Shown here: positions 17,501 to 64,000 of the stretch, in pieces
Numbering within the stretch: the stretch's first letter is position 1
Layout: every line of letters begins with the position of its first letter
NCBI GenBank assembly: GCA_951406725.2
Contig: OX597832.1
Span: 372,001-436,000, forward strand
Origin: Octopus vulgaris
Lineage: Eukaryota
Direction of reading: 5' to 3'
Length of the DNA stretch: 64,000 nucleotides
Made by a program: the position numbers and the translations under genes
The notes under the pieces: generated by a model
What the model saw: only the letters and a program-made list of their open reading frames with translations
Told to the model about the DNA's origin: nothing
Databases searched by the model: none

Positions 17501-20500
17501 AAAATGTACTCTTTTTAAAAGTTGAAAAATTTTACCCCCCTTTCCAAAATCCCCCAAATTTTTACACCCACAGTTTTTGAGATAGGGGGTTTCTAACCAA
17601 GTCCAGTCGCTTCCTCACCTCTTTTTACATGTCCCTGTAAATTTTGGAGCCAATCCGACCCCATCTACCGGCCCTTAAACCGTTCCCACCCCAAAATGAG
17701 ACAAACAAATTTTTCGCATTTCAGCTATGGATATTGATTAAAGTAGCAGTTGATAAAAAGTTAGCTGACATGGAGGACTGGAAGCCATCTAAATATTGGA
17801 AAAGTGCTACCTGTATCATGCTGATTCAGCCAAGTATCAAAATGTTGACTCAGCCAAGTATCAAAATGTTGACTCATGCAGCTCAATGCTCTGTCAACCC
17901 TGTAAAGGCTTTATGATGTGACATGAACTGCTGCAATGGAGACTATGGAGTCATAGCCAGCATGAAGGGACACAGTGGGTGTTCTGCAAGTCAGAATTTA
18001 TTCAACAATTGATGAAAAGGGCTAAACTCAATTCAGACAGCTATGTGAAGCTGCTGGAGACTAGTCAAACCTTCACTGAAGTGGGTTGTTGCTGGAAGGC
18101 TATTTGTGTGGCAACAGGATTTGGATCTTTGTCATACCTCTGAAAAGTGTCTGGTTGTCAGAGAATTTCTATGACTCCATCAGCACCAATTTCTGGCCTC
18201 CTAATTCTCCCAATTGCAATTCCATGGATTATTGTGTGAAGCACAGTTGAGAAAGACATTAATTGCTCTGCCTGTAAAACCAAGGCTGAGCTGGTGACCA
18301 AGATCAAGGTGTTCAAAATTTTTTTCCCTGGGACACAGTGAGGAATGCATGTGCCAGATTTCAAAATCATCTTGAGGCTATGGTGGAAGCTGAGGGCAAC
18401 TATTTTGAGTAAACTGTTATTTCCCAGCCAAAATCTAGTTGATATTTTTTGACTTCTAAAATACTTTAGTTTTGGATGAGATATTGTGTTTTGTTTTCCT
18501 TATATGCAAGCTGTCAAATTTAGCCTGAACATCCCGTATATACACACAAATATCAAACATCCCATATATATATACACAAATATCAAAAATCCCGTATATA
18601 TACACAAATATCAATGAAGCTGTAGCAATATTGTTTTCTTCATTGCTATCTTCACTGTTTGAGAAAAATATTAAGAATGATCTCGTTTGAGATTACAAAC
18701 ATCTTTGGCTAGTTTAACCGTGTTGTGTCCACTATTTTGATTGGTTAGCATCTAAGCGCGGTCTGTCTCTATACTTCGTGCCAGTGTGTAAACTGACCAA
18801 TCACGGCTTTCGGATAGGACTTTTTATTTGAGCCATCTTAACTCTTTAAATAGGCTGATCATATCACGATTCATGTCTTTTGGTTTAAGACCTTCTAAGG
18901 TCTTGGTCGGAGACCACACAACACAGAGCTTACTCAACCATGTTCCAGTTCAAAAGGCAGACGAGAGCCAAGCCAAACCTAATATGAAGACGCTATAGTA
19001 AACCAAGCGACAGACATAACGTCATCACCAACATCGTCTCCATCTGCGAAGATTTAACTTGTACACAAGATAAATACAGATTCAACTCATGCTGTTAGTG
19101 TGAAAATCTCACCACGGAAAAACAGTTGCAGTATATATATCTGAAAGAATATCTATATCAAGAGAAAAATATGCACAACAAGTGACTTAACTAATCTCAG
19201 CTCCGAGACTCAAATCTTGTATAGAACTCATTATCGTGTACTACATGAACTGGTAAAATAACTCTAAAGTAACTTCATTTAAACTCAAAATGTTGAGATT
19301 TCTTTTATGCTGTGTTGTATTTGCATAAACCTTATTTCTGTACTTTTGTTGCACACACAAACACACAGACACAAATATATTAAGCATGCATCTAAGACAC
19401 AATACTACACTAATAACAACAAATCACTTTGTACACTGTGAATAAAATCTAACTTCTCTTTATAATAGTAGAACGGTTTTTGGCATTCCTTTATATATTT
19501 ACTTTCGCACTGTATATTAAATATGTATTATGGCTTATATAACATTAAGTTATGTTATGTTGGGATGCGGCCGGACGCTGTTGAATAAGAGGAGAAAATA
19601 TGTCACCAAAACTCCCTCTTGTGCGATCATATTCTAACATAAGTGGTGACCCCGACGTGATGTCTGTCGCTTAGTTTACAATAGCGTCTTCATATTAGGT
19701 TTGGCTTGGCTGGCGTCTGCCTTTCAAAATGGAATATGGTTGAGTAAGCTCTGTGTTGTGTGGTCTCCGACCAAAACCTTAGAAGGTCTTAAGCCAAAAG
19801 ACATGAATCGTGATATGATCAACCTATTTAAAGAGTTAAGATGGCTCAAATGAAAAGTCCTATCCGAAAGCCGTGATTGGTCAGTTTACACACTGGCACG
19901 AAGTATAGAGACAGACTGCGCTTAGATGCCAACCAATCAAAATAGTGGACACAACACGGTTAAACTAGCCAAAGATGTTTGTAATCTCAAACGAGATCAT
20001 TCTTAATATTTTTCTCAAACAGTGAAGATAGCAATGAAGAAAACAATATTGCTACAAAGCTAAGTTGTACTGATTGTTTTATTTCTTTAAATATTTAATA
20101 TATTTGCTCAATGTTTGTCACTGCCTCCCATTTTCTCATTCATAATTCATTTGTTGCCAATAGTATAATCTTTTCCTTTTAGAAATATGGCCACATGTAC
20201 ATGCAGTAGTTAAACATATTTATTTTAAGTATAATTTTCAAGTAATATATTCAAGTTTTAAGTATGACCTTCATTAATCTTTTAGAAACTTCTTCAGTAT
20301 TTTTCGCTTCCCTTTCTCCCCTTATTACCCCACCTTTATGTTAGATTTGCATGATATCCCCTTTCTACACAATAACAACCTTTTTATGCTTTCATTTACT
20401 TATTTGACCTTGAATGTTTGTGGGCCTATGGAATTAGTGGTTCAATTGAGTGGTAAAAATATTTGACTGTCTGATTATGCAGCAGAACTATCTGCCTGCA

Positions 20501-46399: not shown

Positions 46400-46510
46400 A
46401 TATATATATATAGTATATATGTATATATATTTATATATGTATATACTATATAAATATATATATATATATATATATAGTATATATGTATATATATTTATAT
46501 ATGTATATAC

Positions 46511-46542
<32 letters not shown>

Positions 46543-46780
46543 GTATATATGTATATATATTTATATATGTATATACTATATATGTATATATATTTATATA
46601 TGTATATACTATATAATATATATATATATATATATAGTATATATGTATATATATTTATATATGTATATACTATATATGTATATATATTTATATATGTATA
46701 TACTATATAAATATATATATATTTATATAGCATATATATATATATAGTATATATGTATATATATTTGTATATGTATATAC

Positions 46781-46956
<176 letters not shown>

Positions 46957-47161
46957 GTATATACTATATATATATTTATATATGTATATATATATTTATA
47001 TATGTATATATATATATATTTATATATATATATATATATTTATATATGTATATATATATATATTTATATATGTATATATATATTTATATATGTATATATA
47101 TATTATATATATATATTTATATATGTATATATATTTATATATGTATAAATATATATATTTA

Positions 47162-47306
<145 letters not shown>

Positions 47307-47309
47307 TTA

Positions 47310-49254
<1,945 letters not shown>

Positions 49255-49284
49255 ATATTTATATATGTATATATATATATATAT

Positions 49285-49679
49285 ATAATAGAAATATTAA
49301 AATTACTAAGTCTCTCTAAAAGAGAACAACGGCAGCGTTCCGGAAAATAATAGTTATCGCCATACTAATATGGCATTCTTATAAAAATAAGAATAAAGCT
49401 GTCCGCTTATTAGCTCCATGAGGCCATCGCCTTAAGTTAGCTATTTGATACACAAACTGTATCCATATAACCTTCGAACAAGGGAGGTCAGTCGCTCCAC
49501 ACTACTTGACCGGCAGCTACAGACTCGTTTCGGGGTATTGCCCCTTTTCAATGCAGCGTAGCCAGACCAGTAGGTGTCGCTTCTGACAATATCTGTTCGA
49601 AGGTTTTATTTACCTAGCTTCGGTGGAATACATCCACTTGTTTTCAATAATAGAAATATTAAAATTACTAAGTCTCTCT
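49285..49679 (-). mobile_element. Candidate non-LTR retrozyme (362-bp monomer plus 33-bp terminal redundancy)
   Basis: The direct repeat ATAATAGAAATATTAAAATTACTAAGTCTCTCT occurs at 49285-49317 and 49647-49679. It contains an internal hammerhead and no credible ORF. Confidence 0.65.
49512..49563 (-). ncRNA. Type I hammerhead ribozyme, U3-A8 core variant
   Basis: Minus strand: GGC-TAC-GCTGCA TTGAAAA GGGG-CAATA-CCCC GAAA C-GA-GTC TGTAGC-T-GCC. Stem I GCUGCA/UGUAGC, 4-bp GC stem II, minimal stem III, GUC cleavage triplet. Confidence 0.75.
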
Positions 49680-50031
49680 GACTTGTTTCAGTCATTTGAC
49701 TGCAGCCATGCTGGAGCACCGCCTTTAGTCGAGCAAATCGACCCCGGGACTTATTCTTTTGCCGAACCGCTAAGTGACGGGGACGTAAACACACCAGCAT
49801 CGGTTGTCAAGCAATGCTAGGGGGACAAACACAGGCACACAAACACACACACATACACACATATATATATACATATATACGACAGGCTTCTTTCAGTTTC
49901 CATCTACCAAATCCACTCACAAGGTATTGGTCGGCCTGGGGCTATAGCAGAAGACACTTGCCCAAGGTGCTACGCAGTGGAACTGAACCCAGAACCATGT
50001 GGTTGGTTAGCAAGCTACTTACCACACAGCC
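49680..50031 (-). mobile_element. tRNA-derived SINE with CR1/L2-type LINE-like tail
   Basis: Head GGCTGTGTGGTAAG...GGTTCAGTTCC (A/B boxes). The tail (+ strand GTTTCAGTCATTTGACTGCAGCCATGCTGGAGCACCGCC) matches the LINE 3' end at ~62650-62690. Confidence 0.75.
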
Positions 50032-50035
50032 AGAC

Positions 50036-50676
50036 ATCATCATCATCATCATTTAGCGTCCGCTTTCCATGCTAGCATGGGTTGGACGGTTCAACTGGGG
50101 TCTGTGAAGCCAGAAGGCTGCATCAGGCCCAGTCTGATCTGGCAGTGTTTCTACGGCTGGATGCCCTTCCTAACGCCAACCACTCCGTGAGTGTAGTGGG
50201 TGCTTTTTACGTGCCACCCGCACAGGTGCCAGACAGAGCTGGCAAACGGCCACGGACGGATGGTGCTTTTTACGTGCCACCGGCACGGGGGCCAGGCAAG
50301 GCTGGCAACGGCCACAATCGGATGGTGCTTTTTACATGCTATTGGCACGGGGGCCAGGCGAGGCTGACAACGGCTTCGAACGGATGGTGCTTTTTACGTG
50401 CCACTGGCACGGAGGGGAGTCGGGGCGGCGCTGGCAACGGCTACGATAGGATGGTTCGCTTACTTGTCACCAGCACTGGTATCACAGCTGCAATTTCCAT
50501 AGATGTTGATTGACTTCGATTTTGGTTCTGCTTTCTGATATCTGATTTGGTTTGATTTTTTGATTTTTATGATTTTCACTTGCCTGAACAGGTCTTCACA
50601 ATTGGAGTTTTGTGTCCCAAGAAGGAAAGGTATGTATAAGTCGACTGACTACATACCAGGTAGAGGCCACGGGTTA
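50036..50676 (-). mobile_element. RTE LINE 3' UTR fragment
   Basis: (GAT)n tail and 3'UTR repeats closely similar to 27826-28370. Confidence 0.88.
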
Positions 50677-50723
50677 TACATATATATATATATATATATA
50701 TTTATATATGTATAGATAAACAC

Positions 50724-50786
<63 letters not shown>

Positions 50787-50902
50787 CATATATATATTTA
50801 TATATATATATGTATATATATACATATATATATTTATATATGTATAGATATACATATATATATATTTATATATGTATAGATATACATATATATATATTTA
50901 TA

Positions 50903-50952
<50 letters not shown>

Positions 50953-51000
50953 TATATTTATATATGTATAGATATACATATATATATATTTATATATATG

Positions 51001-51042
<42 letters not shown>

Positions 51043-51101
51043 TATATTTATATATGTATAGATATACATATATATATATTTATATATATGTATATATATA
51101 C

Positions 51102-51134
<33 letters not shown>

Positions 51135-51206
51135 TATATTTATATATGTATATATATACATATATATATTTATATATGTATAGATATACATATATATATA
51201 TTTATA

Positions 51207-51239
<33 letters not shown>

Positions 51240-51327
51240 GTATATATATACATATATATATTTATATATGTATAGATATACATATATATATTTATATATG
51301 TATAGATATACATATATATATATTATA

Positions 51328-51375
<48 letters not shown>

Positions 51376-51812
51376 CATATATATATTTATATATGTATAG
51401 ATATACATATATATATTTATATATGTATAGATATACATATATATATATTTATATATGTATAGATATACATATATATATATTTATATATGTATAGATATAC
51501 ATATATATATATATATATCTATATGTATATATACATATATATATATATGTATATATACATATATATATATACATCTATATATACATATATATATATACAT
51601 ATATATATATACATATATATATACATATATATATACATATAGATATATACATATATATACATATATATATACATATATATATACATATATATATACATAT
51701 ATATATATACATATATATATACATATATATATACATATATATACATATATATACATATATATATATACATATATATACACATATATATATACATATATAT
51801 ACATATATATAT

Positions 51813-51884
<72 letters not shown>

Positions 51885-51909
51885 ATATGTATATATATAT
51901 ATATATATC

Positions 51910-51971
<62 letters not shown>

Positions 51972-52006
51972 GTATATATATACATATAGATATATATATA
52001 TCTATC

Positions 52007-52114
<108 letters not shown>

Positions 52115-52148
52115 GATATATATATACATATAGATATATATATATCTA

Positions 52149-52193
<45 letters not shown>

Positions 52194-52194
52194 A

Positions 52195-52247
<53 letters not shown>

Positions 52248-52312
52248 ATATGTATATATATCTATATGTATATATATATATATATATATATCTATCTATA
52301 TGTATATATCTA

Positions 52313-53263
<951 letters not shown>

Positions 53264-53289
53264 GATATATATATATATATATATATCTA

Positions 53290-53374
<85 letters not shown>

Positions 53375-53391
53375 CTATATCTATATGTATA

Positions 53392-53428
<37 letters not shown>

Positions 53429-53513
53429 ATATCTATATGTATATCTATATATCTATATGTATATATATATATATATATATCTATATCTATATCTATATGT
53501 ATATCTATATATC

Positions 53514-53546
<33 letters not shown>

Positions 53547-53745
53547 CTATATCTATATGTATATCTATATATCTATATGTATATATATATATATATATCT
53601 ATATCTATATGTATATCTATATATCTATATGTATATATATATATATCTATATCTATATGTATATCTATATATCTATATGTATATATATATATATATCTAT
53701 ATCTATATATCTATATGTATATATATATATATATATCTATATATC

Positions 53746-53898
<153 letters not shown>

Positions 53899-53927
53899 CT
53901 ATATGTATATATATATATATCTATATG

Positions 53928-54222
<295 letters not shown>

Positions 54223-54247
54223 ATATATATATTTATGTATATATACG

Positions 54248-54279
<32 letters not shown>

Positions 54280-54463
54280 CGTATATATATATATATATTA
54301 TATATATATAAGTATATATATCTATATATATTTATATATATACGTATATATATATATATCTATATACGTATATATATACATATATATACATATATACATA
54401 TACATATATATACATATATACATATATATATATACATATATATATACATATATACATATATAT

Positions 54464-54508
<45 letters not shown>

Positions 54509-54521
54509 CATATATATATAT

Positions 54522-54612
<91 letters not shown>

Positions 54613-54637
54613 CATATATACATATATATATATATAC

Positions 54638-54774
<137 letters not shown>

Positions 54775-54775
54775 C

Positions 54776-54820
<45 letters not shown>

Positions 54821-54843
54821 CATATACATATATATATATATAC

Positions 54844-55058
<215 letters not shown>

Positions 55059-55070
55059 ATATAGTGTGTA

Positions 55071-55666
<596 letters not shown>

Positions 55667-55672
55667 GTGTGT

Positions 55673-56211
<539 letters not shown>

Positions 56212-56213
56212 AT

Positions 56214-56372
<159 letters not shown>

Positions 56373-56379
56373 TATATAC

Positions 56380-57060
<681 letters not shown>

Positions 57061-57075
57061 TATATACATATATAT

Positions 57076-57217
<142 letters not shown>

Positions 57218-57220
57218 TAC

Positions 57221-57303
<83 letters not shown>

Positions 57304-57690
57304 TATAATATATAATATATATATATATATTTATATATGAAAATGACCAATATATGTAGATCTCTTAGTTTTCTTGGCAGTTTTTGAAATATATACATAT
57401 ATACATATATGCTCCTTATATATATGCAGTACTGTAATTATATATCCAGGATTGTATATGTATATACATCTTCTCTGTTGTACAAATTGAGTTCCCTATA
57501 TATATATATATGGTTAGTTTATATATGACCATATATATACATATATAGTGTATATATGTCCGGAATATATATATATACATGTATATATATATATATCACT
57601 CATATATCCCCAGGTCCCGTATATATATATATCCCTCCTTATATATGTATATATACATATATATATATACCACATATTTGTATATATATC

Positions 57691-57864
<174 letters not shown>

Positions 57865-57872
57865 ATATATAC

Positions 57873-58009
<137 letters not shown>

Positions 58010-58012
58010 CAT

Positions 58013-58059
<47 letters not shown>

Positions 58060-58120
58060 CATATATATATATACATATATACATATATACATATATATAC
58101 ATATATACATATATATATAT

Positions 58121-58171
<51 letters not shown>

Positions 58172-58196
58172 CATACATATATACATATATATATAC

Positions 58197-58263
<67 letters not shown>

Positions 58264-58267
58264 TATA

Positions 58268-58317
<50 letters not shown>

Positions 58318-58956
58318 CATATATACATATATATATACATATATATATATATATACATATATATACATATCACCTATACATATATATACATATACATATA
58401 TATATATACATACATACATATATACATATATATATACATATACATACATATATACATATACATATACATATATATATATATACATATATATATACATACA
58501 TATATATATATACATACATATATACATATACCTATACATATATATATATATACATATATATATATACATACATATATATATATATATATACATACATATA
58601 CATATATATATATATACACATATATACATATATATATCATATACATATACATATATACATATATATATATACATATACATATATAATATATATATATATA
58701 TCATACATATATGACATATATATACATACATATATACATATATATATATACAACACATATATATATATATATACATACATATATACATATATATACGAAC
58801 ATATATATATATACATATACATATATATATATTTGATATATATATATACATATATACATATATACACATGATATATATACATATATATATGCACATATAT
58901 ACATATACATATATACATATATATATATATATACATACATATATACATATATATAC

Positions 58957-59005
<49 letters not shown>

Positions 59006-59026
59006 TATATACATATATATATATAC

Positions 59027-59065
<39 letters not shown>

Positions 59066-59066
59066 C

Positions 59067-59281
<215 letters not shown>

Positions 59282-59283
59282 CA

Positions 59284-59396
<113 letters not shown>

Positions 59397-59497
59397 GTAT
59401 ATACATGTAATGTGACATTTACACAATACAATAATATACGCAACACAATTCATAATAATATATTTGTTTTATCCTTTTCTGCCAAATTTTCCCAAAT

Positions 59498-59727
59498 AAT
59501 GTGACAATTATGTATAAAAAAACATTTTTGAATTCATAATATCCAATGTGACAATTATGTAAAAAACATTTTTGAATTCATAATATCCAATGTGACAATT
59601 ATGTAAAAAACTTTTTTTGAACCCATAATATCCAATGTGACAATTATGTAAAAAACTTTTTTGAATGCATAATATTCAATGTGACAATTATGTAAAAAAA
59701 TTTTTTTGAACCCATATTATTCAATGT
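59498..59727. repeat. Minisatellite, ~5 copies of a ~44-47-bp unit
   Basis: AATGTGACAATTATGTAAAAAA(C/T)TTTTTGAA..CATAATAT(C/T)C repeated in tandem. Confidence 0.9.
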
Positions 59728-59820
59728 TTCCTTAAATGTAACTTTTGACAATCTTTTACCAAAGAGTGAAACCGGTTAAGTAAATAAACATCGTTTAAAT
59801 TGCATTTTCAAACCTTTTTT

Positions 59821-60072
<252 letters not shown>

Positions 60073-60093
60073 CATATATATATACATATATAT

Positions 60094-60409
<316 letters not shown>

Positions 60410-60441
60410 CCTATCAAATATATCAAAGTATCAAAGTATAC

Positions 60442-60806
<365 letters not shown>

Positions 60807-60861
60807 TGATGAAACAATCAAAAAAAAGTTAATAAATAAACATCGTTTAAATTGCATTATA

Positions 60862-61130
<269 letters not shown>

Positions 61131-61131
61131 C

Positions 61132-61232
<101 letters not shown>

Positions 61233-61273
61233 CATATATACATACATATATATATATATATATACATATATAC

Positions 61274-61612
<339 letters not shown>

Positions 61613-61620
61613 TTATATTA

Positions 61621-61670
<50 letters not shown>

Positions 61671-61673
61671 TAC

Positions 61674-64000
<2,327 letters not shown>

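Follow-up and report, generated by a model that had tools for sequence, protein, structure and literature searches.

Erroneous priming during reverse transcription is known from Ty1 and HIV. According to the accessible text of a study in yeast, Ty1 intermediates that ended in a tRNA copy and were erroneously primed gave rise to integrated composite elements (PMC2939329). In retroviruses, the available part of one review terms self-primed minus-strand strong-stop DNA a dead end that was undetected in endogenous HIV-1 reactions (PMC6088434), and for HIV-1 proviruses with asymmetric LTRs an aberrant strand transfer has been proposed, as stated in the accessible sections of that paper (PMC9278108). 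Among LTR retrotransposons, the combination of a tRNA-Trp primer-binding site (PBS), a 4-bp target-site duplication and a CHCC gag motif is given, in the portion at hand, as the marks of the CsRn1 clade of Ty3/Gypsy elements (PMC2582038).

The window analysed here, a stretch of 64,000 nucleotides of Octopus vulgaris DNA, carries a single-copy insertion of 1,436 bp that lies between 4-bp duplications. It is built from the following parts.

18617 to 18620, plus strand: left target-site duplication AAGC; the contig of run X12 that shows the empty site has AAGC just once; the duplication is 4 bp in 32 of 42 family copies.
18621 to 19641, plus strand: full LTR, from the U3 start TGTAGC to the U5 end AACATA; the family has up to 984 candidate places, of which 40 were scored, at 87-94% identity.
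19239 to 19367, plus strand: segment of the LTR (nt 619-747) that resembles the leader of loci L198 and L260, at 71-76% identity.
19642 to 19643, plus strand: AG spacer of 2 nt between the LTR end and the PBS, also present in L012, L031, L050 and L134.
19644 to 19661, plus strand: exact 18-nt complement of the tRNA-Trp 3′ end (PBS), a putative copy of the primer.
19662 to 20056, minus strand: inverted copy of LTR nt 1-395, leading to a second U3 end, as given by the arm alignment.
20057 to 20060, plus strand: right copy of the duplication AAGC, seen in the sequence and in the X12 empty-site contig.

Both outer ends, TGTAGC and GCTACA, are U3 ends, and a canonical LTR retrotransposon or a solo LTR was rejected on this ground. 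An internal polypurine tract and a sense PBS-internal region are both absent from the insertion. The left and the inverted arm form a 395-bp stem in the computed fold, and the inversion begins at LTR nt 395/396, adjoining ATAACGTC. This layout of arms, PBS and AAGC had been described in an earlier, sequence-only reading of the locus, and it agrees with the sequence, in which the arms align without gaps. That reading ended the LTR at 19639 and let the PBS follow directly; the LTR is indeed full, but four bases, TAAG, separate 19639 from the PBS. Since a CATA end precedes the duplication in 7 of 42 family copies, the LTR of the window most likely ends at 19641 and is followed by the AG spacer. 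A full LTR, a spacer and exactly 18 nt complementary to the primer tRNA are what plus-strand strong-stop DNA consists of, and the proposed strong-stop origin of the insertion is supported in this respect.

The PBS at 19644-19661 exactly matches the complement of the last 15 nt of the tRNA-Trp genes of the genome plus CCA. In the genome searched (2.8 Gb in 227 contigs), the 3′ pattern of tRNA-Trp genes gave 36 matches and no control matches, and ARAGORN called tRNA-Trp at three of six loci tested; within the 64-kb window no tRNA gene was found. The copy stops exactly 18 nt into the tRNA (nt 59-76, counted from the T-loop), and we take its stop point to be the modified base A58, from the T-loop and from what is generally held of retroviruses. 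In all three same-family copies that keep an internal region (L031, L050 and L134), the family's own PBS is imperfect: the predicted duplexes with the tRNA copy reach -18.3, -18.3 and -14.8 kcal/mol, compared with -25.5 kcal/mol for an exact one, and the last 3 nt of the tRNA copy are predicted to stay unpaired. We infer that the PBS of the window was copied from the tRNA primer rather than from element RNA; the three closest relatives of the window copy are solo LTRs, so the PBS of its source copy is not readable from these. A loose pattern search for an LTR end followed by a PBS was discarded as mostly chance, with 54 matches compared to 46 in the control.

Sequencing runs were compared with the locus as contigs from four runs, X1, X3, X12 and X20, of which X12 was the sole run used with a small word share. 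In X12, which carries another organism label, a contig joins the left flank to position 20057 with a single AAGC after the last 17 flank letters of the window, and the LTR interior is almost uncovered in this run. The empty site, seen in this one contig of one run, supplies the single AAGC that had been put forward as a check. In X3, a 129-nt contig over 19596-19724 spans the LTR end, the PBS and the arm with 2 differences and no gap. Contigs of X1, X3 and X20 run into the flank from 29 nt inside the right arm, where the rule of the tool is 31 nt, and no listed contig of the four runs spans the junction between the left LTR and its flank. At 18000-18540, the left flank consists of a high-copy repeat found in each of the four runs; next to it comes a short tandem array, whose length is reduced in X12. 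Elsewhere in the window, positions 46500-62700 hold very AT-rich tandem arrays with GC down to 7%, near the start of contig C19. TG...CA ends, a duplication of the family length of 4 bp and a single target at the empty site (one contig) are what an integrase-type insertion leaves, and the 4-bp duplication and the empty site thus uphold the claim that a two-U3-ended product was inserted in this way.

The LTR belongs to a family of about 1 kb, whose members were mostly solo LTRs among the copies examined. Of 42 copies, 25 end in CA and 7 in CATA immediately ahead of 4 bp that repeat the left flank exactly, while 8 have no exact repeat at that point and 2 lack the end; because the exact repeat is found in 32 of 42 copies, the duplication length of the family is 4 bp. 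The CATA-ended solo copies (L007, L008, L014, L015, L021, L027 and L032) have a non-canonical U5 end, yet integrated. Copies that keep the internal region consist of PBS, about 170 bp, a purine tract and the LTR. Since this internal region holds only these parts, the parent family is, judging from its sequence, non-autonomous and non-coding. The internal region of L105-L107 and L134 opens with a decayed read-through copy of tRNA-Trp, and for this reason the non-autonomous family may itself stem from a faulty second transfer.

RT, RNase H and integrase domains were found in coding elements with the same PBS, and the CHCC gag motif occurred in L248 and L213 only, among the loci examined; L248 also has RT and RNase H. 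The stretch that positions 19239-19367 match in L198 and L260 (E 3e-8 and 1e-7; nine loci) lies 500-640 nt downstream of the PBS, and these two loci have the U5 end in common with the CHCC-gag element L248. Two CsRn1 traits, the tRNA-Trp PBS and the 4-bp duplication, are both present in the parent family. Because the PBS is common and LTR nt 619-747 resembles the L198/L260 leader, a CsRn1-like Gypsy group of the L248 type is the likely helper of the family of the window.

The inverted arm starts where the LTR contains a short match to the tRNA, and the LTR holds other matches at which related insertions land.

19016 to 19023, plus strand: landing site used by the window insertion, at LTR nt 396, with a 7/8 match and weaker pairing to 19030.
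18800 to 18807, plus strand: landing site used by L233, at LTR nt 180, with a 7/8 match to tRNA nt 59-66.
18858 to 18877, plus strand: cluster of landing sites of L180, L199, L259 and L262, at LTR nt 238, 243 and 250, with 6/8 matches.

Seven sites in the window LTR match the tRNA at 6/8 or better, and all six family landings (window, L180, L199, L233, L259 and L262) fall on these, where the site list was taken from the window copy and the landings were read by eye. The exact 8-mer of the tRNA was present at the nt 396 site in none of 50 family copies. The sequence-only reading had emphasized an extended 15-nt tRNA mimic at 19016-19030. The 7/8 match at the 3′ end of the primer stands, but the full mimic is at chance level, since 269 LTRs in a set of 2000 shuffled ones scored as high. 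For the same reason we discarded the idea of an evolved landing site. Mis-priming at a cryptic site of the LTR is itself supported by the 7/8 match and by its recurrence at other loci.

This recurrence was assessed through exact copies of the 18-nt PBS (PBS18), of which there are 138 in the genome and none in the control. We examined 117 of the 138: the 100 listed copies, a further 16 that precede bases other than TC, and the copy in the window; the remaining 21 all precede TC. In the first 100 loci, 55 lead into normal internal sequence of one family. PBS18 followed by an inverted LTR start and a 4-bp duplication was found in 8 of 117 copies, window included, with 7 exact duplications; among the other seven, the duplication is exact in L180, L199, L233, L262, L265 and L216 and has one mismatch in L235. 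Five apparent cases of this junction type (L203, L259, L188, L166 and L257), with ends and duplications not settled, were left out of the count of 8. These loci show that the pathway recurs, but the junction of the window itself, for which the earlier reading had proposed a search, was found only at its own locus among the candidates scored.

Six of the seven other products (L180, L199, L233, L235, L262 and L265) open with an inverted U5 hairpin, the form to be expected if minus-strand strong-stop DNA primes itself and then continues by copying the tRNA. They share only the last step with the window insertion, whose start is a full LTR, and this is a point against the account favored below. 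In L216, as in the window insertion, both sides end in U3; its left LTR remnant is 41 nt long and lacks the landing site, and its right end reads CT. L262 is a 520-bp chimera (about 1750-2270, oriented on the PBS) of a U5 hairpin, PBS18 and an inverted U3, with the duplication CTAG. Its U5 hairpin and PBS are from one family and its inverted U3 from the family of the window; because the parts derive from two LTR families, its priming needs two molecules. L233 is a 103-bp mini-insertion with the duplication CTAT, and its right end is an internal TTTACA of U3, not the LTR start, which suggests a cryptic integrase end. Outside the census, L031 runs from an LTR through AG and 4 PBS nucleotides into an inverted U3 of 80 bp, and its left end is other than TG; paralogues of its flank carry one ATAT and L031 two (2/7 exact).

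At another five loci (L012, L178, L187, L201 and L207), a 4-bp duplication encloses a full LTR together with a tRNA copy and a U5 end that was made anew. Since plain recombination between LTRs should leave no internal tRNA copy, we infer direct integration of LTR-length DNA at these loci. Read-through of the tRNA by 17-32 nt past the usual 18, stopping around the anticodon loop, was observed at the PBS in 12 of the first 100 loci (L154, L187, L192, L207, L214, L218, L219, L220, L236, L237, L238 and L243). The base opposite A58 in these copies is T in 7, A in 3 and C in 2. It is possible that they are a DNA record of tRNA modification, with the modified base misread as expected, and some may have been inherited from one ancestor rather than being independent. 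In L157 and L239, a microsatellite of the (TTA)n or (AT)n type begins directly after PBS18. L108/L254-L255, L110/L181, L173 and L253 hold PBS units in tandem, separated by short spacers that resemble U5, which suggests repeated re-priming.

The arms, 18621-19015 and 19662-20056, differ at 14 of 395 sites (3.5%) in a gapless alignment. The rare letter is in arm 1 at 5 of the 14 sites and in arm 2 at 9, and the frequency of such a letter never exceeds 6 of 51 copies. A 5-bp insertion and two substitutions that just 3-4 of 51 copies carry are common to both arms, and because of these rare markers we regard the arms as coming from one source lineage, and therefore as having drifted apart afterwards. 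The 8 of 14 differences that cluster within 63 nt on the junction side (scan p 0.012) have no explanation and count against this simple picture. Arm divergence, which had been recommended for dating, is 3.5% and dates the insertion only roughly, as the flank differs from X12 to a similar degree, at 19 letters in about 640. Divergence among copies is no clean clock, since family members stand 6-13% apart in spite of the scant cover of the LTR in X12.

We consider it highly probable that the core common to the readings of the window insertion, mis-priming followed by insertion by integrase, is correct. For the way in which this happened, we favor an account in which strong-stop DNA primed synthesis at a cryptic site carried by another plus-sense copy, and integrase likely inserted the product by way of two U3 ends. 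A non-autonomous, Trp-primed element would be copied by a Ty3/Gypsy (CsRn1-like) partner, and plus-strand synthesis would copy the LTR and 18 nt of the tRNA primer. The family's own PBS would leave the last 3 nt of this copy unpaired, so that the normal second transfer would stall. A co-packaged molecule of plus sense, either a second RNA or a second strong-stop DNA, would then offer LTR nt 396-403 to the 3′ end, which would pair there and be extended to the U3 start. The other strand would be completed from a polypurine-tract primer, or two such strands would pair, in either case giving two U3 ends, and integrase would insert this product, whose arms would drift afterwards. Completion of the second strand and of both ends as integrase substrates is presumed from the structure of the product.

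Priming between molecules, rather than on the same molecule, is the choice we lean towards, since a single hairpin offers just one end, the chimera L262 requires two molecules, and the left part of L216 has no landing site. The window locus by itself cannot decide between the two. Under strict self-priming, which we judge a possible but distinctly less likely course, displaced single-stranded strong-stop DNA would fold onto its own nt 396 site, and, at the same modest likelihood, two hairpins or a hairpin and a copied strand would supply the two U3 ends. Run-off at the 5′ end of the DNA would then yield the exact U3 terminus without trimming, and Ty1 intermediates that end in a tRNA copy do accumulate, according to the accessible text of the yeast study (PMC2939329). 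The letters at LTR nt 151 and 159 are common to both arms (each in 6 of 50 copies) and absent from the three nearest relatives, as one molecule would predict; transcripts of one locus would equally have both in common. At arm nt 384, a single and weak site, the letter of the three nearest relatives is found in the inverted arm but not in the left one, which speaks against one molecule. Additionally, one hairpin gives one end, whereas the 4-bp duplication implies two. The mis-primed strong-stop DNA of the self-priming account first given for this locus thus stands, while its restriction to the same molecule is unproven, and L262 shows the step taking place between families.

Rearrangement after integration, in which a two-LTR element or neighboring copies were inverted and deleted at a microhomology, seems to us unlikely, and equally so a variant in which a longer aberrant product recombined down to the present form. 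Solo LTRs predominate in the family, so that recombination is efficient in it, and a longer two-U3-ended precursor could collapse to the same structure with its duplication kept. A plain inversion, however, must break exactly at the LTR end and retain AAGC, an imperfect PBS would not become an exact 18-nt tRNA copy, and the landings on predicted sites at other loci would be left without a cause.

A mobile non-autonomous element with terminal inverted repeats (TIRs), as the sequence-only reading had envisaged, would fit the long inverted ends and a possible convergent promoter pair, but it is very improbable, because the window junction is single-copy (absent elsewhere among 40 scored of 177 candidates and all 12 exact PBS copies preceding G) and the internal polypurine tract and sense PBS-internal region are missing. 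An assembly fold-back artefact, conceivable because the inverted repeats lie close to a contig end full of tandem repeats, and already thought unlikely in the earlier reading, has a negligible chance given the 14 arm differences and the matched duplication with its empty site in X12, and is refuted by the independent X3 junction contig unless X3 is the assembly's own sample, which is possible.

In our judgement the window insertion is real, of integrase type, and belongs to a class of failed strand-transfer products that recurs in this genome. Strong-stop "dead ends" of this class are recorded in the germline, bearing clean integrase signatures and located where an 8-nt match predicts, and the class can be found in any genome through exact 18-nt PBS copies. 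It bears on the origin of non-autonomous LTR families and chimeric LTRs, on solo-LTR counts as a measure of recombination alone, and on the ends that Gypsy integrase accepts in vivo. We tentatively raise a wider idea, which we hold to be plausible rather than probable, that the integrase of Trp-primed Gypsy elements routinely inserts LTR-length strong-stop DNAs directly, by any two ends, with the tRNA copy acting as a portable primer. If so, usable ends would include U3-U3, U5-U3, a re-made U5 and even an internal cryptic end; the portable primer would give rise to LTR chimeras and to novel non-autonomous families; some share of the "solo LTRs" would have an origin other than recombination; and U3-U3 fold-backs such as the one described here would serve as loci ready to make hairpin RNA against the family they come from.

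No germline LTR-PBS-inverted-U3 insertion is described in the full-text literature searched, which leaves out most subscription papers and repeat databases. The two-U3 architecture and a genomic record at predictable landing sites appear undescribed, and older retrovirology may describe such forms, unintegrated or integrated. The underlying chemistry of erroneous priming is already known from Ty1 and HIV. TRIM-type LTR elements are miniature and non-autonomous, and the parent copies resemble them in having PBS, about 170 bp of internal sequence, purine tract and LTR, although the parent LTRs are about 1 kb. The inverted ends of MITE and foldback elements are transposase TIRs; the window insertion has similarly long inverted ends, but it is single-copy and its ends are integrase U3 ends. 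The strand-transfer deletions of Pulsinelli and Temin (1991) reportedly also belong with integrated products of aberrant strand transfer.

Compared with the CsRn1 clade, as characterized in the accessible part of its description, the family of the window is alike in the tRNA-Trp PBS and the 4-bp duplication and differs in encoding nothing, its link to the family of L248 being the PBS and a similarity of 74-113 nt (PMC2582038). Retroviral self-priming, in the part of the review at hand, involves fold-back extension as in the U5 hairpins of the six loci above; its products are dead ends there, whereas the octopus counterparts integrated, and the window insertion starts from a full plus-strand LTR (PMC6088434). 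The asymmetric HIV-1 proviruses are likewise integrated products of aberrant transfer between co-packaged genomes, but, in the accessible sections, they have direct orientation, U3 and U5 ends and an internal region, with no inverted arm primed by a tRNA copy (PMC9278108). In the Ty1 composite elements, as far as the available text describes them, an intermediate that ended in a tRNA-complementary PBS copy likewise became linked to other DNA, through erroneous priming or a template switch, and entered the genome; those were laboratory events with transformed DNA in yeast, whereas the window insertion is a germline event in which the element's own LTR is inverted and both ends are U3 (PMC2939329).
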